From the IMG/VR virus record IMGVR_UViG_3300047189_000028: a DNA stretch of 10,841 bases; one strand, 5' to 3'. The position numbers and the translations under genes were made by a program. The number at the start of each line of letters is the position of its first letter. Within the stretch, counting starts at the first letter, position 1. Positions 1 through 10,809 of this stretch are shown in pieces. The stretch is from a virus (Duplodnaviria > Heunggongvirae > Uroviricota > Caudoviricetes). Under the pieces are notes generated by a model. The model saw only the letters and a program-made list of their open reading frames with translations, was not told where the DNA came from and did no database searches.

Positions 1-713
1 GTGATAGTGCTGTGTTCAGCGGCCGGGATAGAGAATCCTGCCATCGGTTCCCTATAGAATTCTGCGGCGTCAAGAATGCCTTCCACAGTATCCGAACCCA
101 TGAAGTTCACAAGGTGAGCAGCACCAGCAATACCAGCGCTTTCGAATGAACTTACACCACGCGCACCGAAGTCGTGCAACTTGAATGGGAGAAGAGACGG
201 ATCACCAGTGGATTCCAAGTACGACTTGATCGTCTGCTTCATCGCATACGAATTCGTTGCAACGGTCGTACCGTACCACACCGCACGAAGAAGTGCAGTC
301 TCGAGGTAGGAGACGAGCCAGACAAGGTTGCCGTCAACCTCCGCCTGTTCAGTCAGCTCAACCGAAACGAGAATGTTGTGTGTTGGGACAACAGTGCCTT
401 CAGGTACCGCACAAATGCGGACGGGCATGTAGCCATTGTACTTGTCGAGAATGTGCTGCCAGCCAGCACGATTGAAAATATTCGGACCAACGTGTGCACC
501 GATAAACGTATCGGCCTCATCGATGTCTGCCTGTGTGATTGGTTTCGACAGAACTTCCTTGAGGAAAATCTGGAGGCCAAACATCACGGTTGCGGGATGG
601 TCGCCACCACGAGACTCGATGTATGAGAGCTGGTTGGTTGCACCTTTTGGATACTGCTTCCAATGGGAAGGCTTGTAAGAGTCAGTGTTGAGAATGAGAT
701 TCAAAATGTTCAT
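1..713 (-). CDS. nadV: Nicotinamide phosphoribosyltransferase (Nampt/NadV); 3' end truncated by the window edge
   Basis: Not in the ORF track. Manual translation from the ATG at 713 is open to the edge for 237 codons: MNILNLILNTDSYKPSHWKQYP...ESRGG...GLQ...VPEG...LETALLRAVWYGTTVAT...KLHDFGARGVSS...AHLVNFMGSDT...GFSIPAAEHSTIT. These are hallmark NAMPT motifs. SD AAGGAG (720-725) lies 6 nt upstream. Confidence 0.95.
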   Translation of the reverse strand, partial: MNILNLILNTDSYKPSHWKQYPKGATNQLSYIESRGGDHPATVMFGLQIFLKEVLSKPITQADIDEADTFIGAHVGPNIFNRAGWQHILDKYNGYMPVRICAVPEGTVVPTHNILVSVELTEQAEVDGNLVWLVSYLETALLRAVWYGTTVATNSYAMKQTIKSYLESTGDPSLLPFKLHDFGARGVSSFESAGIAGAAHLVNFMGSDTVEGILDAAEFYREPMAGFSIPAAEHSTI

Positions 714-770
714 AGAAAGCTCCTTTCTACTGTGTAATACTCGCAAGGTCTATCCTCTTGAGCGTCTATC
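713..770 (-). promoter_or_regulatory. Structured nadV leader: GG-AUAGA-CC hairpin, a second GAUAGAC copy and an SD-sequestering hairpin
   Basis: Minus strand CTCAAGAGG-ATAGA-CCTTGCGAG (740-762) can fold into a hairpin. A second GATAGAC sits at 764-770. TAGAAAG-GAG-CTTTCTA (713-729) is a 7-bp stem that covers the SD and the A of the ATG. Confidence 0.6.
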
Positions 771-798
771 TCCGAATACAAATCCTGTATTAGGCGCT

Positions 799-827
799 AT
801 TATATATGATCAACCCACAGAAGACAA
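799..827 (-). promoter_or_regulatory. Sigma70-type promoter for nadV
   Basis: TTGTCT (827-822), 17-nt spacer, TATAAT (804-799), directly upstream of the nadV leader. Confidence 0.7.
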
Positions 828-834
828 CAGCAAG

Positions 835-1023
835 TTATTGGCCCTTTTGGGTACCTTTTCTCATCTTCTTTTGTGGCGCGGCCTTCGTAACGATCACCTT
901 TTGCTTGAGGTGTTCTGATTGTATTTGTGGAATATGTTTGTCTTTTTGACCTGGGTGTTGGCTCGCCATTTCCTTCAACATCTTTTCTAACTCGTCAATC
1001 GATGGGATCTTGTTTTTGGGCAT
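835..1023 (-). CDS. Small basic hypothetical protein (62 aa)
   Basis: ATG 2 nt after the stop of the 446-aa gene, with AGGA upstream. It fills the gap in the co-directional run. No recognisable domain. Confidence 0.6.
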   Translation of the reverse strand: MPKNKIPSIDELEKMLKEMASQHPGQKDKHIPQIQSEHLKQKVIVTKAAPQKKMRKGTQKGQ

Positions 1024-1025
1024 AC

Positions 1026-2366
1026 TTAGATTCCTGTATATTGTTTCAACTCTTGCATGTACTTACCAACATAACCCTCTGCGGTATTACCACTACGGAA
1101 TTCACTCATTCCAACGTTGTACGCAGCAACTGCAGCATCACGATGGCGCAACTTCTTGTAGTACAAATGGAGGATGTCTGAGCCTGTGGAAATCTGCTTT
1201 TCGATGTCACCTTGAAGATCAGCTGCGTCCATTCCCCACACCTTTGGGCGAACTTGCATTAGACCAACTGCTGGGTCGCGTCTTAGACCAGAAACTGCAT
1301 CAGGGTCAAAACTACTCTCGACACCAATGATAGCAAGAATGTCTTCTGCTTTCGGGAATGTTGTCTTTTCGTATTTGTGAGCAAGTCTAACGATCTCAAG
1401 AGCATCGTCTGGATCGACTTTATATTTCGCTGAAATCATTTGAGCCATTTTCTGTTTTTCGGGTGAAGCCTGTGGCTTGGGTGCTGGAAGAACTACAGCT
1501 GGTTCTGGTTTTTGTTGAATTTGTGGAGTAGGGTCCATTTGAGTCTTCATTGGATTGCCCATCAGTGAAGCACCAATAGCACCTGCCGCAACAGCGTGCT
1601 TGAGATTGAACCCTTCAAACTGATCACGTTTTGGTTGCTGGAGCTTAAGATGATATCTACTTGCAAGTGCTCCAGCTGTTGATCCTTTGATATCGTATTT
1701 GAATTTTTCAAATTGATCCTGATTCATTCTACGAATTAGCTGATCAATTTGTTGCATGTCAAAATATCCTTGATTATATGCTTGCTTTGCAGGCATACCA
1801 CGCAATCGTTGCTGCAATCCGTGTTGTAACTTCTGTTGCAACCGTTCGTTCCAGGTTTGGTCTTCTCTTTCCTTGTTTGCTTGACGAACACGATCGGCTT
1901 CAATCTCTTCGGGAGTTGGTGGAGCTGGTGGTACGTATTCTACCCGAGATGGTTCCTTGCGTTCCTTGCGTTCCTTCTTAGGACGTTCCTTCTTCTTTGT
2001 TAGTTCTGGATATTGTTCTTTTGCTTTGTGCCATACAGTACCAGGAAAGAAGGAGGGACCGTTAATGCTATCTTCTTTTTCTTTGCGTAGTTGATTACGC
2101 AATGCCATAGCGAGTGGTTCATTATCAACGATTTGTAAGATTTCGAATTCAATCTTGTCTTCATTACCATCGTTGGCATCGATTAGTTCGTTTGAACCTC
2201 TATTTTGAAGACTGTTTTTGTTTTGGAAAAATGAATGTTTTACAGATTCAACATCTGTTCCACGACGAGCATAGCCGTAATAACTCATATCTGAATCAGG
2301 ACCGTATGCTCGATACAGAGCACAAGGTGGTGAATCATTTTCCGATAATAGTTCGTATACTTTCAT
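1026..2366 (-). CDS. Multidomain protein: degenerate GIY-YIG-like N-terminus, charged linker and C-terminal SLT-type lytic transglycosylase
   Basis: The C-terminus has the SLT motifs ILAIIGVESSF (catalytic Glu), AVGLMQV and AAVAAYNVG. The N-terminus has ALYRAY...YYGY and FEILQIV...SIN, which resemble GIY-YIG. The SLT call is strong; the GIY-YIG-like call is weak. Confidence 0.85.
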   Translation of the reverse strand: MKVYELLSENDSPPCALYRAYGPDSDMSYYGYARRGTDVESVKHSFFQNKNSLQNRGSNELIDANDGNEDKIEFEILQIVDNEPLAMALRNQLRKEKEDSINGPSFFPGTVWHKAKEQYPELTKKKERPKKERKERKEPSRVEYVPPAPPTPEEIEADRVRQANKEREDQTWNERLQQKLQHGLQQRLRGMPAKQAYNQGYFDMQQIDQLIRRMNQDQFEKFKYDIKGSTAGALASRYHLKLQQPKRDQFEGFNLKHAVAAGAIGASLMGNPMKTQMDPTPQIQQKPEPAVVLPAPKPQASPEKQKMAQMISAKYKVDPDDALEIVRLAHKYEKTTFPKAEDILAIIGVESSFDPDAVSGLRRDPAVGLMQVRPKVWGMDAADLQGDIEKQISTGSDILHLYYKKLRHRDAAVAAYNVGMSEFRSGNTAEGYVGKYMQELKQYTGI

Positions 2367-2368
2367 TT

Positions 2369-2402
2369 GGGGTCATAATCCTTTGCTTCCACCCCGTATT
2401 TA
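2369..2402 (-). promoter_or_regulatory. Putative late-promoter core TAAATA followed by a GGGGT/ACCCC stem over the ribosome-binding region
   Basis: Minus strand TAAATA (2402-2397) c GGGGT...AAGGA...ACCCC aa ATG, inside a 39-nt intergenic gap. Confidence 0.4.
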
Positions 2403-2405
2403 CGA

Positions 2406-2753
2406 TTAGTTTTCGATCTCGTCCTTGTGATCACCAGTTACAACCTTTCCATGGAAGAATGCGTCGGGAATAAACTTAGTTTCCTGTTGATCAACAAGAG
2501 GCAGGAAGTGCTTCATCTCTTCGTGTTTGTCGGCTGGAAGCCAAAGGAAATGGGGCCACTTGATGTCTGTTCGACTAGATCTGCACCAACGAATCACTAA
2601 GTAGCTACCTGGAGTATCTACCCAACGACGAACTGCCCAAGTAAGACAATTGTCAATTCGAGGTTTCCTTGTGAGTCTTCTTGTTACCTCAATGTATGGC
2701 CAGATTATCAGAAAGAGTAATCCCCATCCAACTAATCTTACGAATGCCCACAT
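2406..2753 (-). CDS. Hypothetical protein with an N-terminal hydrophobic segment (115 aa)
   Basis: The ATG at 2753 has GGAG (2763-2760) 6 nt upstream, so it is preferred to the track's TTG at 2765. MWAFVRLVGWGLLFLIIWPY looks like a membrane anchor. Confidence 0.7.
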   Translation of the reverse strand: MWAFVRLVGWGLLFLIIWPYIEVTRRLTRKPRIDNCLTWAVRRWVDTPGSYLVIRWCRSSRTDIKWPHFLWLPADKHEEMKHFLPLVDQQETKFIPDAFFHGKVVTGDHKDEIEN

Positions 2754-2767
2754 GGCGATCTCCAATC

Positions 2768-3292
2768 TTACATCATATTAATATGTGACATAATTGTTTG
2801 TAGTGTTTGTTTATCAGCAGGAATCGTTTCGTATTTAACACCTGTCTCGCTTAGTGCATCAAGAATTAAATTGTCTACACGAACGGACTCGCTGAAATCT
2901 TGTACTCTACCAACACTACTAAAGTTTGGTGGACGCGAGATAAAGAAGTTGACGTTGTTGTAGCGATTAAATGTTTCGATCGCGTACTGGTCGAAATGAT
3001 CTCCAGGTGATGTGTTGTAAATCTTTGGATAGATCAACGAAAGAAGCAACGGACTATCGGTAATTGCCCACTCAACTTTATCCTTAAGAATAAACTGACG
3101 AAGGTTTTGCTTGGCAAATACATATTCCTGTTTTGAGTTTAGGAATGTAACACGATCAGAGTACACAAGCTCTTTTGCATATTCGGTGATTAGCTCAACG
3201 TTCATGTGTTTGAGCTTCATCTGATAAAAAAGACCAGCAGCAGTCGTTGATTTGCCAGAGCCAGGTCCACCAAAAAGATTAATCACCTTCAT
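2768..3292 (-). CDS. P-loop NTPase/kinase, NadR/AAA_28-like
   Basis: Walker A GGPGSGKST, then TEYAKELV and WAITDSPLLL, followed by an R-x-Q lid-like segment. This pattern is typical of the phage NadR-kinase-like AAA_28 family. SD GGAG lies 5 nt upstream. Confidence 0.8.
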   Translation of the reverse strand: MKVINLFGGPGSGKSTTAAGLFYQMKLKHMNVELITEYAKELVYSDRVTFLNSKQEYVFAKQNLRQFILKDKVEWAITDSPLLLSLIYPKIYNTSPGDHFDQYAIETFNRYNNVNFFISRPPNFSSVGRVQDFSESVRVDNLILDALSETGVKYETIPADKQTLQTIMSHINMM

Positions 3293-3319
3293 ATAGTCTC
3301 CAGTATATGGAGCTATTTA
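3293..3319 (-). promoter_or_regulatory. TAAATA box overlapping an SD-occluding hairpin upstream of the kinase
   Basis: Minus strand TAAATA (3319-3314), then ATAG-CTCCA-TATAC-TGGAG-A-CTAT-ATG: a 9-bp stem with one bulge that pairs the GGAG SD. Confidence 0.55.
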
Positions 3320-3559
3320 TTCAATCTTCTGATATGTCTCTCGGAAGATGTCATCTTGAACAGGCCAGTATTCACCACGAGCTCCTGGACCAACTATCCA
3401 ACAGCCTGGAGTGAGTTTCAACTGAGCTTCCAGCGAATCAACGACCCAGTAAAACCCATCGCTGTATACTCCAGCGGGAATAACCTTTTCGTTATCATCA
3501 GGGCCATTCCACTGAATGGCCCTGACAGGGATTGGCTTTTTGATGTACATGTCGTTCAT
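3317..3559 (-). CDS. Conserved small phage protein (KKP...AIQW...GE.WP...IF..TY family)
   Basis: Shows the YIKKPIPVRAIQW / SLEAQLKLTPGCWIV / GEYWPVQDDIFRETY pattern common in phage hypothetical proteins. TAATG overlap with the NMNAT stop. Confidence 0.8.
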   Translation of the reverse strand: MNDMYIKKPIPVRAIQWNGPDDNEKVIPAGVYSDGFYWVVDSLEAQLKLTPGCWIVGPGARGEYWPVQDDIFRETYQKIE

Positions 3560-4617
3560 TACACACGACCCAAGAAGTATGAGACGATGTAGTGGTGATC
3601 TTCAAACATTTGATCTTCCATCTTCTCAAAGTCTGACAACGAGACCCATTTTGCCTTGACAGCATCGTCGCTACCCTTAACGGTAGGTAGTGGACCTGCA
3701 GGCAGTTCGATCAAAAACGCGTTCGTAATTGTCCGACCACGAAGCGAACGACCAGGTGCATCAAATACGTGGCGGGCCTTGATGCTGCCACGAAGAACCG
3801 GATCAGGAACCTTGATCTTCGTTTCTTCGCGAAGCTCACGAATCATCCCGTTCTCGATTGTTTCGTTGACATTGACGAACCCACCAGGCATTGCGTAGAG
3901 ACCCTCACCAGGTGCAGAACGACGACGAACGAGTAATACGTGGCCAGACTGTATAACAACAGCGTCACAAGTCTGGAAGATTACTGGATACGGAGAAACC
4001 TCCCACTGCTGTTTGTATTCCTTGATGTGAGTATACTCCCGAACAAGCCGTTCATATTCCTTCTTAGGAAACTTCTTGTAGATGAACGAGTGCACATCTG
4101 TGTTGAGTGCACCGGAAGTAAATGTTGGGGACTGACCACTCAGCCACATATCGCGAACTGTCGATGCATCGATTGTATCAATATAGCTGCGACCGACTTC
4201 AATGAAATCCCACTGCGGAAATGCGTTGAGGTACCAGCTAGACTGATCCTTGTCGTGGCCGATGATGCCAACCTTCAACGGACTCTTGCCCTCGAATGGC
4301 GGCTTGATTGTTGGCATCAGCAAATCAACATGCTTCTGAACTTCCTGCATCCACTTGTTATCGTTGTACAGATAATCGCGGAGCGGGCGAATTGTCAATC
4401 GAGAGAGGTGCTGCGGATCGAGACTCATCTCGATCATCTGACGACGCTCTTCGTACGTGAATGGATTCTTGATTGTTCGCGGCTGATAGGACGAGCCAAC
4501 GAGCACGAGAACTTGTTTTGCCTGTTCCAGTGCGAGTTCAATAACTCGACGATGACCAACGTGGAACGGCTGAAACCGCCCAATGAATACTAATAGATCG
4601 TGTGTTCTTTCTTTCAT
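3559..4617 (-). CDS. nadM: Bifunctional NMN adenylyltransferase / Nudix ADP-ribose pyrophosphatase (NadM-Nudix, NatV-like)
   Basis: GRFQPFHVGH (HxGH), KNPFTYEER, IIGHDKD and DASTVR in the NMNAT domain. Nudix box GGFVNVNETIENGMIRELREET, plus RGRTIT, GSDDA and FEDH. Start placed at the ATG at 4617, with GGAGGA (4630-4625) 7 nt upstream. Confidence 0.95.
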   Translation of the reverse strand: MKERTHDLLVFIGRFQPFHVGHRRVIELALEQAKQVLVLVGSSYQPRTIKNPFTYEERRQMIEMSLDPQHLSRLTIRPLRDYLYNDNKWMQEVQKHVDLLMPTIKPPFEGKSPLKVGIIGHDKDQSSWYLNAFPQWDFIEVGRSYIDTIDASTVRDMWLSGQSPTFTSGALNTDVHSFIYKKFPKKEYERLVREYTHIKEYKQQWEVSPYPVIFQTCDAVVIQSGHVLLVRRRSAPGEGLYAMPGGFVNVNETIENGMIRELREETKIKVPDPVLRGSIKARHVFDAPGRSLRGRTITNAFLIELPAGPLPTVKGSDDAVKAKWVSLSDFEKMEDQMFEDHHYIVSYFLGRV

Positions 4618-4665
4618 TTGGAAATCCTCCAAATTCGACGTTATGCAACAGGTCTATCCCATTGC
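4617..4665 (-). promoter_or_regulatory. Structured nadM leader: GG-AUAGA-CC hairpin and SD-sequestering hairpin
   Basis: GCAATGGG-ATAGA-CCTGTTGC (4665-4645) is an uninterrupted 8-bp stem including two G.U pairs. TTTGGA-GGATT-TCCAAA (4633-4617) covers the SD and the A of the ATG. Confidence 0.65.
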
Positions 4666-4672
4666 GTACTGG

Positions 4673-4703
4673 TATTTATACACCATCCAGGAGGTTTTGT
4701 CAA
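4673..4703 (-). promoter_or_regulatory. Sigma70 promoter whose -10 element lies within a T4-late-like TATAAATA
   Basis: TTGACA (4703-4698), 17 nt, TATAAA (4680-4675). The -10 extends to TATAAATA (4680-4673). Confidence 0.75.
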
Positions 4704-4714
4704 CTCCTGGATGG
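4683..4714. repeat. Perfect 11-bp inverted repeat flanking the -35 box
   Basis: CCATCCAGGAG (4683-4693) and CTCCTGGATGG (4704-4714). The 10-nt loop contains TGTCAA. Confidence 0.85.
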
Positions 4715-4726
4715 GATATGGGTCAA

Positions 4727-5218
4727 TTACTCTTCGGAAGTCAACGGAAACGGACTGACCGTAATTCGATCTTCGATATAGACTGGAGCGACTTCTTCGG
4801 GCTTCTTTGGATTTGCACAGAGAACCCACGTGCCTTCAGCTGAAGCAGGACTGTACAAGCCATTTGGATCAGCCTGGGGAAGTGTGAGATATGCGCCACT
4901 GTAAGGATGGGAAAACATCTGTGGGTTCGTATACTGTGTCGCATACGGAATGCCATAACCGATGCTGTTGCACCGCTTGTGCAGTTTGCCGTTGAGATCC
5001 GTGATGTACGTGATCGTAACAATCTTCGTATCACGAAGCTCAAGGATCTGCTTGAGCACACGCTTTTCCTGGAAGTTCACAATTGCAGGAAGACCAACTT
5101 GCTGAACGCCTTGCATGGTCTGCTGTTCCTGTTTCTGAGCTTCAATCTCCGTTGCCGTCGGAGGACCGCAAGCAGCAAGAAGAAGGACGAGCGGAAGTGA
5201 AAGTAGAATTTTCTTCAT
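4727..5218 (-). CDS. Lipoprotein of unknown function
   Basis: MKK, a hydrophobic stretch and a LAAC lipobox. SD GAGGT. Two further Cys residues in the mature part. Confidence 0.85.
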   Translation of the reverse strand: MKKILLSLPLVLLLAACGPPTATEIEAQKQEQQTMQGVQQVGLPAIVNFQEKRVLKQILELRDTKIVTITYITDLNGKLHKRCNSIGYGIPYATQYTNPQMFSHPYSGAYLTLPQADPNGLYSPASAEGTWVLCANPKKPEEVAPVYIEDRITVSPFPLTSEE

Positions 5219-6217: not shown

Positions 6218-7501
6218 ATGGGGATACGCGAATCAATACACCGTGCCTTAGCAGAAGCTCAAGGACAAAGTGCACAACGAAATACTCCTCCACCTACTAA
6301 AGCAGGGAAAATAATGTCAGAGAAATTCCAGTTTACATCAGGTCTTGGCCGCGGAAGTAACGACTTTTACCCCTCAGCTCACGAACTCTATTTCAAGCAC
6401 TTCGACGACAATATTTACTTCGTATATCATACAGGGATAACTGACCGCTATAATAGCCCTGCTTATGATGAAGATGACGAGGATGATGACGAGATGCCAA
6501 ATCTCGGTCTTGAGAACCTCGAGAAGGAAATCAAAGGCTTGATGGAGGTCACTGAGAAATACTCAGCATATGGTGGACAAGCCAGTGACGAACTGGCAAC
6601 AATCTACAAGTTTGCAAACTACGAGAATAATGTCTTCGTAGCAAACGTTGTGTTTGTAAACAAAACGCTTGTTCAGATTCGTATTAGCCCAACACGTCGG
6701 CGTACAATGACTGCGTTTACTATTCTGTCTGACAACTTCGAACGTCCAGAGCTTGAAGTACTGAAGACCTACGCTAAGCAGTTTATTGCTCCTCCTCCAA
6801 CAAAGAAGGACAAGATCCACATTATCACACAGAGCAACAATGACTTCTATTTGAAAGACATTCCGCTCACCAGCAAGAAAAAGTCGATGTTCTCATTCGA
6901 GAACTACAACGAAGGGTTCGAGGATATTTCTAATCGCATCATCAACACACTGAAGACAGACAGTGAAAGCGGTCTGGTGTTGTTCCACGGTGATCCAGGA
7001 ACCGGAAAGACCAGCTACCTCAAGCACTTGCTGCACACAATTGATAGCAAGAAGTTGATTTACATGCCACCCGATTTGACCGAGCATTTGAGCTCGCCTG
7101 GTTTCATTACATTCATGATGAGTGAAGCAACAAATAGCATTCTGTTGATCGAAGATGCGGAAAATGTCCTTCGTCATCGCGAAGCTGGTGGCAATCAGGC
7201 TGTGTCAAACATTTTGAATCTGTCGGATGGTATTTTAGGCGATGTGTTGAAGTTGCAGATTGTTTGTACCTTCAATAGCAAGCTCGAAGAAATTGACCCA
7301 GCTCTACTACGTCCAGGTCGTTGCATTGCAGAATACCGCTTTGAACCACTCGCAGCTGATCGTGCTTATCACTTGATGCAGAAATTGCACGGTGATGATA
7401 TTGAAAACGAGGGCAGAGAAATGACATTGGCTGAGGTCTTCAACTATAGAAAGCCAAAAGATCGCACAAAGAGCAAGAAGCAAAAGCTTGGCTTCACCTA
7501 A
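6218..7501 (+). CDS. AAA+ ATPase (classical AAA core) with a large N-terminal domain
   Basis: Walker A GDPGTGKTS, Walker B ILLIEDAE, sensor and second region of homology TFN...IDPALLRPGR. The start may instead be the ATG at 6313 (MSEKFQF). Confidence 0.9.
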   Translation: MGIRESIHRALAEAQGQSAQRNTPPPTKAGKIMSEKFQFTSGLGRGSNDFYPSAHELYFKHFDDNIYFVYHTGITDRYNSPAYDEDDEDDDEMPNLGLENLEKEIKGLMEVTEKYSAYGGQASDELATIYKFANYENNVFVANVVFVNKTLVQIRISPTRRRTMTAFTILSDNFERPELEVLKTYAKQFIAPPPTKKDKIHIITQSNNDFYLKDIPLTSKKKSMFSFENYNEGFEDISNRIINTLKTDSESGLVLFHGDPGTGKTSYLKHLLHTIDSKKLIYMPPDLTEHLSSPGFITFMMSEATNSILLIEDAENVLRHREAGGNQAVSNILNLSDGILGDVLKLQIVCTFNSKLEEIDPALLRPGRCIAEYRFEPLAADRAYHLMQKLHGDDIENEGREMTLAEVFNYRKPKDRTKSKKQKLGFT

Positions 7502-7509
7502 GGAAATAT

Positions 7510-8631
7510 ATGACTACGATTGTAGAAGATGTGAAGCTGGACTTCTCGGATGTATTGTTGATGCCCAAGCGCTCAACACTTGATAGCAGATCAAAGGTTG
7601 ATATTAATCGATCGTTTAAGTTCAAACACTCAAGCGTTGAATACGAAGGTACACCAATCATCGCTGCTAACATGGACACAACTGGTACCTTTGAAATGGC
7701 TAAGGCATTTAAGCCTTACAACATGGCAGTTGCTCTTCATAAGTTTTATACAGCAAAGGCATTGATTGAATATTTCAGTTCATCAGAAAGAAATGACAAT
7801 ACGTTCTACGCTATGGGAATCACAGATAGTGATCTTGATAAGTTTAGAACCGTATACAGTGCTACCAAACCAAGTGGGTTCCTTTCAAATCAGGACATTA
7901 TGCGTCCTATCAAGTACCTGTGCATTGATGTAGCGAATGGTTATTCACGCAAGTTTGTTAACTTCGTAGAAAAAGTACGAGATGAGTTCCCCGATCTTGT
8001 CATTATGGCAGGAAATGTTGTCACAGGAGATATGGTATATGACCTTCTTGAAAGAGGTGCTGACATTGTTAAAGTGGGTATTGGTCCCGGTAGCGTTTGT
8101 ACTACTCGCAGGATTACTGGTGTGGGATATCCTCAACTTTCTGCTATTCTTGAGTGCCAGGATGCTGCACATGGTGCAGATGGGCTAATCTGTGGTGATG
8201 GTGGTATTGCTGTTCCTGGTGATCTATCAAAAGCATTTGCTGCTGGAAGTGACTTTGTCATGTGTGGTGGTATCTTTGCTGGCCACGATGAATGTGGTGG
8301 TGAGAAGATATATTCTACTGACAACTATTCAAAGGATTCACCTGGGGAACCTTTTGGAAAGCCTATTATGATGCGCTTCTATGGAATGTCAAGTCACGAG
8401 GCAATGGACAAGCATTACGGTGGTAAGGCTAACTATCGTGCCAGTGAGGGCAAGGTAGTAGAGGTTCCGTATAAGGGATCTGTAACCGATACAATTGAAG
8501 AGATGTTGGGTGGATTGCGTAGTGCTTGCACCTATGTTGGTGCCCGACGCTTAAAGGATATGCCGAAGTGTGCTACATTTGTACGTGTAAATCGTCAGCT
8601 TAATGACTCATTAACAAGGTATAATGTATGA
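7510..8631 (+). CDS. guaC: GMP reductase (GuaC, type 1)
   Basis: EDVKLDFSDVLLMPKRSTLDSRS, FKFKHS, PIIAANMDTTGTF, CIDVANGYS, KVGIGPGSVCTTR, FYGMSS and YRASEGK. No CBS insert. SD AAGGA. Confidence 0.95.
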   Translation: MTTIVEDVKLDFSDVLLMPKRSTLDSRSKVDINRSFKFKHSSVEYEGTPIIAANMDTTGTFEMAKAFKPYNMAVALHKFYTAKALIEYFSSSERNDNTFYAMGITDSDLDKFRTVYSATKPSGFLSNQDIMRPIKYLCIDVANGYSRKFVNFVEKVRDEFPDLVIMAGNVVTGDMVYDLLERGADIVKVGIGPGSVCTTRRITGVGYPQLSAILECQDAAHGADGLICGDGGIAVPGDLSKAFAAGSDFVMCGGIFAGHDECGGEKIYSTDNYSKDSPGEPFGKPIMMRFYGMSSHEAMDKHYGGKANYRASEGKVVEVPYKGSVTDTIEEMLGGLRSACTYVGARRLKDMPKCATFVRVNRQLNDSLTRYNV

Positions 8632-9286: not shown

Positions 9287-9317
9287 ATAACTCCCGGATG
9301 TCCGAGAGTTATTTATA
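9287..9317 (-). promoter_or_regulatory. T4-like late promoter TATAAATA overlapping an 11-bp SD-occluding hairpin
   Basis: TATAAATA (9317-9310). The hairpin ATAACTCTCGG-ACAT-CCGGGAGTTAT (9312-9287) pairs the GGAG SD. Confidence 0.7.
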
Positions 9318-10110
9318 CTTCAATACGAAGTACTGGGTCGAAGTTGGTGTTCTCACACGGACCCTGCGGATAAGCATATCCACGGGGGTTCGTCTTGACT
9401 CTGGTTTCTCCAACCATATAGTCAAATGACGTGTGCGTGTGACCATGAACCCAAAGTTTTGGCTCCGTGTCAAGGATCTCATTGCTGAGGTCTGAAACAT
9501 ACGCCCAATTCACGATATCGTTTCCGTATCGTGCGTAGTCGATTGACAACTCACATGGTGCGTGGTGCGTCACTACAACAATTCTCTGACCAGCCGACTT
9601 CTCCGCCACAATCGCATCGAAGATGAACTTCTTTGAGATGATGTGTTCGTTGAAAATGTCATGCGGGCTAATCCGCTTGATGTAAGCATTCTCAAGATTT
9701 GGGCCAGTGCGAATGTAATTGTAGTCATTCAGAGCACGACGAATCGTCTCCATAACCATAGGATTGCCTTTCCTGAAGTCTGTCCACAACGTTGCACAAA
9801 TAAATGACACACCGTCGACACGAACGACTTCATTGTCAGCAAGAATCCAGTTCTTGTGAGCACTCATTGTTTCCTTAATCTTTGTTCTCGTACGAAGCAG
9901 AGAACCATGATAGTACTCATGATTGCCACAGATCTGAATCACCTGACGAAAGCGAGGAGCCCAGGTTTTAACAGAGCTGAACGATGGCAGACTATTAGCC
10001 ACACCAATGTCGCCAGCAAGAATGAGAATATCATCCTTGTCAGTGTCAAGAGGTGGCATATCGAACTCACTGAATTCGCTATGAATGTCTGAGAAAAGTC
10101 TAATGAACAC
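9313..10110 (-). CDS. Calcineurin-like metallophosphoesterase
   Basis: SDIH, LAGDIG, GNHEYY, VVVTHHAP, WVHGHTH and NPRGY motifs. GTG start with GGAG 7 nt upstream. Confidence 0.92.
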   Translation of the reverse strand: MFIRLFSDIHSEFSEFDMPPLDTDKDDILILAGDIGVANSLPSFSSVKTWAPRFRQVIQICGNHEYYHGSLLRTRTKIKETMSAHKNWILADNEVVRVDGVSFICATLWTDFRKGNPMVMETIRRALNDYNYIRTGPNLENAYIKRISPHDIFNEHIISKKFIFDAIVAEKSAGQRIVVVTHHAPCELSIDYARYGNDIVNWAYVSDLSNEILDTEPKLWVHGHTHTSFDYMVGETRVKTNPRGYAYPQGPCENTNFDPVLRIEV

Positions 10111-10159: not shown

Positions 10160-10309
10160 TCAACTCTTTGCGAGGAAACTTTGAAACGACTTCGCTCTAT
10201 TTAGCTGCACTTTGTGGAGAGGTTTATCGACAGAACGCGATCGTTTCAACACCATCTTTCGGGGGCGTGTCATTAGATTGTATGGATCGAATACTTCTGC
10301 TACTTTCAT
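10160..10309 (-). CDS. Small basic hypothetical protein (49 aa), not in the ORF track
   Basis: ATGA overlap with the endolysin stop. Translation: MKVAEVFDPYNLMTRPRKMVLKRSRSVDKPLHKVQLNRAKSFQSFLAKS. Confidence 0.6.
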   Translation of the reverse strand: MKVAEVFDPYNLMTRPRKMVLKRSRSVDKPLHKVQLNRAKSFQSFLAKS

Positions 10310-10809
10310 TCTGCTGCTCTTGATAACCATCCTTTTAGGAACTTTTGGTCTTCAGGATGTGCAGCAACAACTGCTTGATAGTAGTTTGCTTGTGCTTGAC
10401 GAAATGAGTTTAGTAGGTTTGTTGGATCGCATGAGTTCACTGCTGAGATTGATTTTGGTCCAAGATTACCATCGTCAACAATATCAGGAAAACCATTTAC
10501 CTTGAGACAGCGTTGTAGAATTTTGTGTGTACGACCAGCACCTAAGTTGACAGATGTATCAAATATCTTTGTTGCTAATGAGACATCCACAATCTGATTG
10601 TAGCAAAAGTGTGACCACCAGTCGCGATAGTAAATGTCAGTTGCTTGATCGATAGTCAAGTTTTTGATGTCAAGAGTAGGATATGTTCTCTTTGAAATAC
10701 CGTACTTTGTTTCACCACCAGCATCTTTTGGATCATTGACGTATCCACCCTCATGACGAAGTACTACGAGAATTGCTTGTTGAAACTTTTGATCTGTTGT
10801 GGCGTCCAT
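10306..10809 (-). CDS. Glycoside hydrolase family 108 endolysin with a C-terminal peptidoglycan-binding region
   Basis: HEGGYVNDPKDAGGETKYGIS (GH108 EGGY motif), IFDTSVNLG, DGNLGPKS and FLKGWLSR. SD AAGGA. Confidence 0.93.
   Translation of the reverse strand: MDATTDQKFQQAILVVLRHEGGYVNDPKDAGGETKYGISKRTYPTLDIKNLTIDQATDIYYRDWWSHFCYNQIVDVSLATKIFDTSVNLGAGRTHKILQRCLKVNGFPDIVDDGNLGPKSISAVNSCDPTNLLNSFRQAQANYYQAVVAAHPEDQKFLKGWLSRAAE

Follow-up and report, generated by a model that had tools for sequence, protein, structure and literature searches.

The two NAD-salvage genes nadV and nadM-Nudix lie on the minus strand of a 10,841-nt stretch of DNA (called the window below, by which the whole stretch is meant) from a virus of the class Caudoviricetes, IMG/VR record IMGVR_UViG_3300047189_000028. 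Each of the two genes is preceded by a copy of a short leader element, which is the subject of this work. The genes are as follows (all positions are those of the window):

3..713, minus strand: nadV (NAMPT), 5′ part, with the Pfam domains NAMPT_N and NAPRTase; the ATG is at 713-711 and the gene runs off the window
3559..4617, minus strand: nadM-Nudix, a NatV-type bifunctional nicotinamide mononucleotide (NMN) adenylyltransferase/ADP-ribose (ADPR) pyrophosphatase of 352 amino acids, with the Pfam domains CTP_transf_like and NUDIX

Together, they make up the two-enzyme NAD+ reconstitution pathway NARP2. The best match of the nadM-Nudix product is the annotated NadM/ADPR pyrophosphatase of Phaeobacter phage MD18 (47% identity).

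A sequence-only reading of the window had pointed to the 9-mer GGATAGACC upstream of both genes, and its description of the two sites proved accurate. The 9-mer is found at 755-747 and at 4659-4651, both on the minus strand, and ends exactly 33 nt before the A of the ATG in either case (gaps 746-714, with the A at 713, and 4650-4618, with the A at 4617). It has no further exact copy in the window; when one mismatch is allowed, 4 sites are found against 1.4 expected, a number that is by itself not above chance. The wider pattern CAA-NN-GGATAGACC-N0-2-TTGC is also present, and it merely reflects a partial likeness of the stems that surround the 9-mer. In both the minimum free energy and the centroid structures computed by RNAfold, the motif occupies the apex of a hairpin (P1) whose AUAGA loop is closed by GG/CC, and each leader ends in a second hairpin (P2) that bears the Shine-Dalgarno sequence (SD) and in which the A and the U of the AUG are paired. 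The two leaders are composed as follows:

4645..4665, minus strand: P1 of the nadM leader, an 8-bp stem GCAAUGGG/CCUGUUGC with U.G and G.U among its pairs, capped by the pentaloop AUAGA (4657-4653)
4635..4644, minus strand: linker of the nadM leader, AUAACGUCGA, single-stranded according to RNAfold
4616..4634, minus strand: P2 of the nadM leader, stem AUUUGGA/UCCAAAU, pentaloop GGAUU, SD GGAGG at 4630-4626
739..763, minus strand: P1 of the nadV leader, GCUC-AA-GAGG/CCUU-GC-GAGU, interrupted by a 2x2 internal loop and capped by the pentaloop AUAGA (753-749)
712..730, minus strand: P2 of the nadV leader, stem GUAGAAAG/CUUUCUAU, triloop GAG, SD AAGGAG at 725-720, A and U of the AUG (713-711) paired

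In the nadM leader, the SD spans the 5′ arm and the loop of P2, and the paired A and U belong to the AUG at 4617-4615. The 3′ arm of P2 ends at the U of the AUG in both window copies, and the distance from the P1 loop to the GGA of the SD is 25 nt in both.

Loci with relatives of the two enzymes were collected from IMG/VR, bacterial genomes and deposited phages. In 111 viral loci plus the window (732 kb), G-ATAGA-C occurs 148 times, and at about 90 of these sites at least 7 of 9 flanking pairs are formed. All but about four of the latter are on the gene strand, 26-43 nt upstream of a start codon. The open reading frames (ORFs) behind 79 such hairpins from the IMG/VR loci code for NMNAT-Nudix (38) and NAMPT (30), the remaining 11 hairpins lying mostly before small ORFs immediately upstream of nadM. 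This is the enrichment of GATAGAC upstream of NAD genes in homologous loci that the sequence-only reading had named as a test of its proposal. The leader recurs in about 100 distinct phage and bacterial loci, with its GATAGAC hairpin 30-45 nt ahead of the ATG and with homologous proteins that are only 35-55% identical, and a chance origin is therefore excluded.

Another test that had been named was covariation in the stem. An alignment of 47 sequences contains changes on both sides in eight of nine P1 pairs and in five of six P2 pairs, and its covariation score is 0.754, compared with 0.205 in shuffles and reached by none of 500 shuffles. Paired cells account for 79% in the alignment versus 49% in the shuffles, though the P1 part of this percentage is partly circular, since P1 instances were first picked by pairing. 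The strand, position and slide controls are free of this circularity: when the 3′ partners are slid by one column, pairing falls to 44%. The lower stems of the two window copies had been described as different in sequence yet still paired, and the same can be said of the whole family, whose P1 stems vary but remain complementary. Matches to the covariance model R1 at E ≤ 1 were distributed as follows:

100 viral loci: 88 matches, 88 on the gene strand
80 bacterial nadM loci: 35 matches, 35 on the gene strand
80 NAMPT-anchored viral loci: 69 matches, 68 on the gene strand

Thus, 191 of 192 model matches are in the sense orientation. Among the first seven P1 pairs, G.U combinations occur 47 times and A.C combinations 20 times (p = 0.001). 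From the strand bias and the excess of G.U over A.C it follows that the pairing is selected in the sense-strand RNA and not in the DNA. Model R1 scores the window leaders at 42.7 bits (nadM) and 39.2 bits (nadV). Model R2, for which only bacterial copies were used, finds them at 35.0 and 32.6 bits, respectively (E about 1e-6), with the next-best site of the window at 7.8 bits. Both window leaders combine the features of the family, namely a P1 with the ANAGA loop and at least three closing pairs, a P2 with the SD at its apex, the spacing, the sense orientation and a place directly before nadM-Nudix or nadV, and both score significantly with R2, a model built without the window. The proposal that both NAD-salvage leaders hold a conserved cis-acting RNA thus stands: about 100 homologous leaders keep an AUAGA-type loop, and both helices covary, on the sense strand.

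Within the family, conservation in P1 is found at the apex. The three apical pairs are almost never broken, and the lower stem is of variable length; about 20% of the members, the nadV copy of the window among them, have an internal loop at positions 4-5. The loop is AUAGA in about 90% of the members, with the variants ACAGA, AAAGA and GUAGA, and keeps A, A, G and A at its positions 1, 3, 4 and 5. The closing pair is usually G-C and sometimes A-U or C-G, exchanged by compensated changes on both sides. The linker is poor in G and often contains UCAA, UCAC or UAAC. At the apex of P2, 106 distinct leaders have GGAGU (29), GGAUU (28) or G[GAG]C (22), i.e., one of these three in 79 of the 106, and the 3′ arm ends between positions −3 and +5 relative to the A of the AUG. 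P2 is weak, with stabilities of −1.5 to −9 kcal/mol. A hairpin of this type is present at 57 of 71 P1-bearing starts (80%) and at 60 of 421 other SD-bearing starts of the same loci (14%; p = 1.5e-28), which indicates that P2 belongs to the element and is not a genome-wide habit. The GGA of the SD follows the last nucleotide of the P1 loop at a median distance of 24 nt (interquartile range 23-26) despite the varying lengths of stem and linker. The length of the P1 arm correlates negatively with that of the linker, partly as an artefact of the stem boundary chosen, and only the narrow total distance was used here. A scan of loop-anchored against AUG-anchored columns for a pseudoknot or other long-range pairing gave a maximal excess pairing of 0.16, compared with 0.43-0.53 for P1; the scan is blind to contacts between invariant sequences. 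At the start codon of nadV, a UCUAU could pair with the AUAGA loop; this complementarity is present in the window but not in its relatives and was rejected as a chance occurrence.

Some lineages depart from the common form. In the viral contig L104 (leaders at 2899-2961 and 4021-4085), the P2 loop is also AUAGA, and the SD (GAGG/GGAG) constitutes the 5′ arm directly before the AUG. The leaders of Ralstonia phage phiRSL1 (L206, 2900-2990 and 4540-4626) have AAGA and UAGA tetraloops in P1 and an AGAGA pentaloop in P2, and those of Klebsiella phage K64-1 (L205, 2910-3000 and 4050-4140) have GUAG-containing P1 loops together with a normal GGAGU P2; both phages were missed by the models.

The leader is restricted to very few genes. 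In five large phage contigs (1.36 Mb), 11 model matches were found, two or three per genome, and all of them precede NMNAT-Nudix, NAMPT or an adjoining small ORF, even where the NAMPT gene is located 38 kb from its nadM. The 149-kb genome of phage MD18 contains exactly two matches, at nadM and at nadV, and in five bacterial genomes of 3.7-8.1 Mb the matches are confined to the nadM/nadV loci; the number of copies per whole phage or bacterial genome searched is one to three. Carriers include phages of alpha-, beta- and gammaproteobacterial as well as cyanobacterial hosts, and bacterial chromosomes of Xanthomonas, Stenotrophomonas, Lysobacter, Burkholderia, Paraburkholderia, Pseudoalteromonas, Thiothrix, Marinicella and Asticcacaulis. 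In bacterial operons, a second copy of the leader is found between nadM and nadV, from which it follows that the element acts after transcription and independently of the promoter. Other targets are occasional. In a Burkholderiales metagenome-assembled genome (L202:2017-2983), the leader precedes the gene of NadA (quinolinate synthase), directly upstream of nadM-Nudix, and the element could therefore also control a gene of de novo NAD synthesis. In two viral contigs it precedes the gene of a 310-amino-acid radical SAM protein (L058:5300-6290 and L095:5131-5326), and there is a weak match before an SPFH protein gene (L185).

Several phage contigs have, behind a leader copy immediately upstream of nadM-Nudix, a small ORF of 96-122 codons that belongs to no Pfam family (L050:2708-3001, L058:2699-2986, L049:2294-2998, L098:2648-2998 and L118:1162-1503). 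The products of these ORFs may be accessory proteins of the cassette.

The dependence on the cassette was examined in 401 Pseudomonadota:

Adjacent NAMPT and full-length NMNAT-Nudix genes: 6 genomes, leader in 4, plus 1 weak match
NAMPT only: 8 genomes, leader in 0
NMNAT-Nudix only: 11 genomes, leader in 0

Of a random 150 Gammaproteobacteria, only two weak extra matches were retrieved. Five phage contigs have the leader before NAMPT with no nadM within 4 kb; four of these encode nadM elsewhere, and the remaining one, a contig of 64% completeness, gave no more than a weak leader match. In the sampled bacteria, the leader was found only where both nadM-Nudix and nadV are present, and this distribution excludes neither enzyme as the effector. 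In two leaderless bacteria (G214:C118:13947-15736 and G233:C2:144681-146662), NAMPT adjoins an ORF of 230-240 amino acids that consists of a Nudix domain only; by its size and position, it would fit an NrtR-type regulator, i.e., an alternative control where the leader is absent.

We compared the leader with described RNAs. A cmscan search of Rfam 15 (all 4227 families, E ≤ 10), run with the whole window and with a 101-nt leader, returned no match on the minus strand at either leader, and only sub-threshold matches on the wrong strand. The sequence-only reading had not recognised the element as the NAD+-I (nadA) or the NAD+-II (pnuC) riboswitch or as a palindromic NrtR box, and this view is borne out by the lack of an Rfam match on the gene strand and by arms that are unconserved and strand-specific. 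The two NAD+ riboswitches resemble the leader in that both regulate, in cis, genes of NAD biosynthesis or salvage from the mRNA leader, and NAD+-II also hides the SD. NAD+-I is built of bulged-stem domains and occurs in Acidobacteria, NAD+-II forms a pseudoknot and occurs in Streptococcus, and both have many conserved internal positions. No description of the element was seen in the papers found that deal with the regulation of NAD genes, with the NARP pathways or with NAD systems of viruses; in particular, neither the NrtR paper (PMC2330246) nor the survey of viral NAD systems speaks of a hairpin, a riboswitch or a leader RNA at nadM or nadV. We conclude that the leader represents a real, conserved and apparently undescribed family of cis-regulatory RNA of the translational-leader kind.

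Candidate promoters of both genes were identified by their match to consensus hexamers:

4675..4703, minus strand: σ70-like promoter of the nadM-Nudix operon, −35 TTGACA at 4703-4698, 17-nt spacer, −10 TATAAA at 4680-4675, a consensus match only
799..827, minus strand: σ70-like promoter of nadV, TTGTCT, 17-nt spacer, TATAAT, 10 of 12 consensus matches

The promoter scan demanded a T at position 6 of the −10 hexamer, and the nadM promoter was therefore read directly from the sequence. Judged by these hexamers alone, nadM and nadV would have separate promoters. Transcription of nadM is predicted to begin about 4 to 8 nt upstream of P1; since the predicted promoters lie just upstream, P1 would begin within a few nucleotides of the mRNA 5′ end. 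A 7-bp inverted repeat, CCAGGAG-N10-CTCCTGG (4687-4710, minus strand), flanks the −35 hexamer of nadM just past the stop codon of ORF 4727-5218; it might serve as a protein operator, or else form a hairpin of the terminator type that belongs to the upstream gene. The nadV leader has two additional features. One is an extra 5′ hairpin (P0):

775..791, minus strand: P0 of the nadV leader, AAUACA/UGUAUU with a P2-like GGAUU pentaloop, predicted by RNAfold and not seen as a family feature

The other is a third GAUAGAC 7-mer, unpaired, at 770-764 (minus strand) downstream of P0, which the earlier reading had missed. P0 and this 7-mer (764-791) may be the remnant of a duplicated leader.

We consider it likely that the two sites are copies of a two-hairpin leader that travels with the NARP2-type nadM-Nudix/nadV cassette and controls translation initiation at each cistron. 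The conservation, covariation, strandedness, spacing and gene specificity described above are direct observations on the leader; its regulatory role, the direction of control and the effector are what we infer. P1 would serve as the recognition hairpin, with a free stem and an A-N-A-G-A pentaloop, usually closed by a G-C pair, from which the SD is always 23-26 nt away. P2 would be a weak gate that displays the GGA of the SD at its apex and has the AUG in or beside its 3′ arm. An effector would recognise the P1 loop and probably the P2 apex too; once bound, it would stabilise P2 or block docking of the 30S subunit and so lower translation, and its loss would open the ribosome site. Since one leader serves varied hosts and occurs only with the cassette, the effector should be either a universal metabolite or a cassette-encoded product, a host-specific factor being unlikely.

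As to the nature of the effector, our preference, a tentative one that we hold with somewhat less than even confidence, is that NMNAT-Nudix or NAMPT, both of them dimeric enzymes encoded by the cassette, exerts autogenous control, with its substrate or product competing for RNA binding. Such competition would tie the synthesis of the enzymes to demand. We lean to an enzyme because the conserved letters are confined to hairpin loops, because there is no conserved internal loop or junction that might form a pocket for an ADP-containing ligand, and because some lineages (L104 and phiRSL1) carry similar loops on both hairpins, an arrangement that would suit a dimer. Operators through which an enzyme controls its own synthesis, namely those of E. 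coli thrS (ThrRS) and of gene 43 of T4 and RB69 (DNA polymerase), as well as the IRE/IRP1 system, likewise have a sequence-specific loop on a free stem, in a hairpin about 25-35 nt upstream of or beside the SD of the regulator's own mRNA, and control is exerted at 30S binding. The regulator in these systems is a dimeric metabolic or housekeeping enzyme, as, by analogy, NMNAT-Nudix or NAMPT would be. Unlike in these systems, two different genes carry copies of the same putative operator here, and the loop sequence is unrelated.

Several points weigh against translational control by the leader, or against an enzyme as the effector. RNA binding is known for neither NMNAT-Nudix nor NAMPT. P2 is weak, and a P2-like hairpin is also present at 14% of unrelated starts; the partial circularity of the P1 paired percentage, mentioned above, belongs here as well. 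There are 13 NAMPT loci that lack a leader match, and about half of the NAMPT-anchored loci have no leader. Vibrio phage KVP40, the experimental model of NARP2, has no match to the leader model, although it encodes the same enzyme pair, NAMPT and NMNAT-Nudix; its NadV and NatV constitute NARP2 (bioRxiv 10.1101/2024.02.11.579819). As many homologous cassettes do without the leader, regulation by it must be dispensable. Finally, the element need not depend on a cassette protein to occur only with the cassette: a single cassette lineage that was inherited or transferred may account for this distribution.

The strongest alternative to an enzyme effector, which we regard as possible though doubtful, is a very small riboswitch class that senses a metabolite of the NAD pathway, the most attractive candidates being nicotinamide or ADPR, set free as defences of the TIR/SIR2 type cleave NAD+, or NAD+ acting as a corepressor. 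In structural terms, to which we give the same guarded standing, the two loops, with or without the linker, would form a compact pocket, e.g., by loop-loop docking as in guanidine-II. NAD+, NMN or ADPR would then be an off-signal, or nicotinamide an on-signal after NADase attack, and binding would set the stability of P2 and hence access to the SD and the AUG. An SD within a conserved structure is typical of proteobacterial translational riboswitches, the presence of the element in very different hosts requires a universal signal, the occasional further targets are NAD genes (e.g., NadA in L202), and the spacing between the two loops is fixed. Guanidine-II (mini-ykkC) provides a precedent for two hairpins of which only the loops are conserved. 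As in the leader, its two short hairpins are joined by a variable linker, and the second one overlaps the ribosome-binding site. Its loops, however, are ACGR tetraloops that kiss via C-G pairs, whereas AUAGA and GGAGU/GGAUU have no obvious complementarity; in the window, the loops are AUAGA and GGAUU or GAG, Rfam returned no match, and the gene context differs. More generally, a riboswitch is disfavoured by the small number of letters conserved outside the SD (about 5 to 7), by a P1 that is devoid of a conserved internal loop or junction, and by the lack of covariation for a pseudoknot or long-range pairing. The apex of P2 varies (GGAGU, GGAUU, GAG, AUAGA and AGAGA), which leaves little RNA for a pocket that would accommodate an ADP-containing ligand. 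Riboswitch classes usually spread across the genes of a pathway, but in the Pseudomonadota sample the element was never seen away from the nadM/nadV cassette, and no expression platforms of the terminator type were seen.

It is unlikely that the leader is a constitutive module, in which P1, located at the 5′ terminus or between cistrons, would protect the mRNA from exonucleases and RNase E, P2 would present the SD in a loop and so make initiation efficient, and the whole would persist by moving with the cassette. Such a module would account for a P1 that begins a few nucleotides after the predicted start in promoter-proximal copies, for the SD-in-loop hairpins at 14% of other phage starts, and for the many cassettes that function without the element. 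Yet a stabiliser needs neither an invariant A-N-A-G-A loop nor a fixed distance of 23-26 nt to the SD, and the restriction to two or three genes among several hundred per genome is hard to explain by a generic function. In addition, the stems have been fully turned over while the loop was kept at 35-55% protein identity, which argues that selection acts on the P1 loop itself.

We see very little chance that the leader is the target of an RNA-binding factor or nuclease unrelated to the NAD enzymes, be it a site of CsrA/RsmA-type repression, a site of RNase processing or an antitermination hairpin. CsrA/RsmA operators do resemble it in having two hairpin loops about 20-30 nt apart, one upstream and one at the SD; the geometry of the CsrA dimer fits two sites about 25 nt apart, and the loop of P2, located at the SD, contains GGA like the hairpin loops of CsrA sites. 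However, only P2 carries the GGA core: the P1 loop, AUAGA in most members and A-N-A-G-A in general, does not have it, and GGA is never held there across members. An association with NAD genes only is not a property of the Csr system and would be left unexplained, and CsrA is present in some of the host groups and absent from others. Hairpins with a pentaloop close to the 5′ end also recall boxB, but there is no terminator downstream of the leader, and the loop starts with A and not with the G of the GNRA-like boxB.

The idea that a transcription factor, NrtR-like or of another kind, uses the site as a DNA operator has in its favour that the sites are just downstream of the predicted promoters of the window and that NrtR regulates nadM and nadV in other bacteria (PMC2330246); it has practically no chance of being correct, and, together with a chance repeat, is excluded by the strand and covariation data, given a core that is not palindromic, unconserved arms that vary freely yet stay complementary, the strong sense-strand bias (191 of 192), the excess of G.U over A.C, and copies inside operons between nadM and nadV.

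The surroundings of the two genes were also inspected. Between nadM and nadV there is a gene of a P-loop kinase (2768-3292, minus strand) that has no leader of its own; it matches Pfam AAA_28 and a PHROG annotated as "thymidylate kinase". Because AAA_28 takes in the ribosylnicotinamide kinase domain of NadR, the product may be a third NAD-salvage enzyme of the operon. On the opposite strand, nucleotide-metabolism genes are found, an AAA ATPase (6218-7501, plus strand) being followed by a gene of the IMPDH/GMP-reductase family (7510-8631, plus strand). The window further contains genes of an SLT transglycosylase (1026-2366), a metallophosphoesterase (9313-10110) and a GH108 endolysin (10306-10809). 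INPHARED contains no phage DNA nearly identical to the window. A search of sequencing runs with the window DNA matched one DNA run, a freshwater sediment metagenome from which the window probably originates, and there were no RNA runs among the runs listed.

Depletion of NAD+ is a common antiphage strategy, and NAMPT with NMNAT-Nudix (NARP2) is a described phage counter-measure. No description of how expression of the NARP2 pathway is controlled was found in the papers searched. A link between the leader and NAD depletion by host defences is plausible, and, if our reading is true, NAD+ reconstitution by phages would have in this RNA its first known layer of dedicated regulation. Should the effector be a metabolite, carriers of the cassette would start to rebuild NAD+ at the very moment of its destruction. 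The element would either found a new class of minimal riboswitches or add to the known cases in which a metabolic enzyme acts as an RNA-binding repressor, and Phaeobacter phage MD18, Stenotrophomonas maltophilia, Xanthomonas and Burkholderia offer tractable systems in which to study it. The leader can also be used as an annotation marker for the nadM/nadV cassette. It is conserved from roseophages and cyanophages to the chromosomes of Xanthomonas, Stenotrophomonas and Burkholderia, and, if it acts as we propose, it would fill a gap for those bacteria whose nadM and nadV genes were outside the assigned NrtR, NiaR and NadR regulons.

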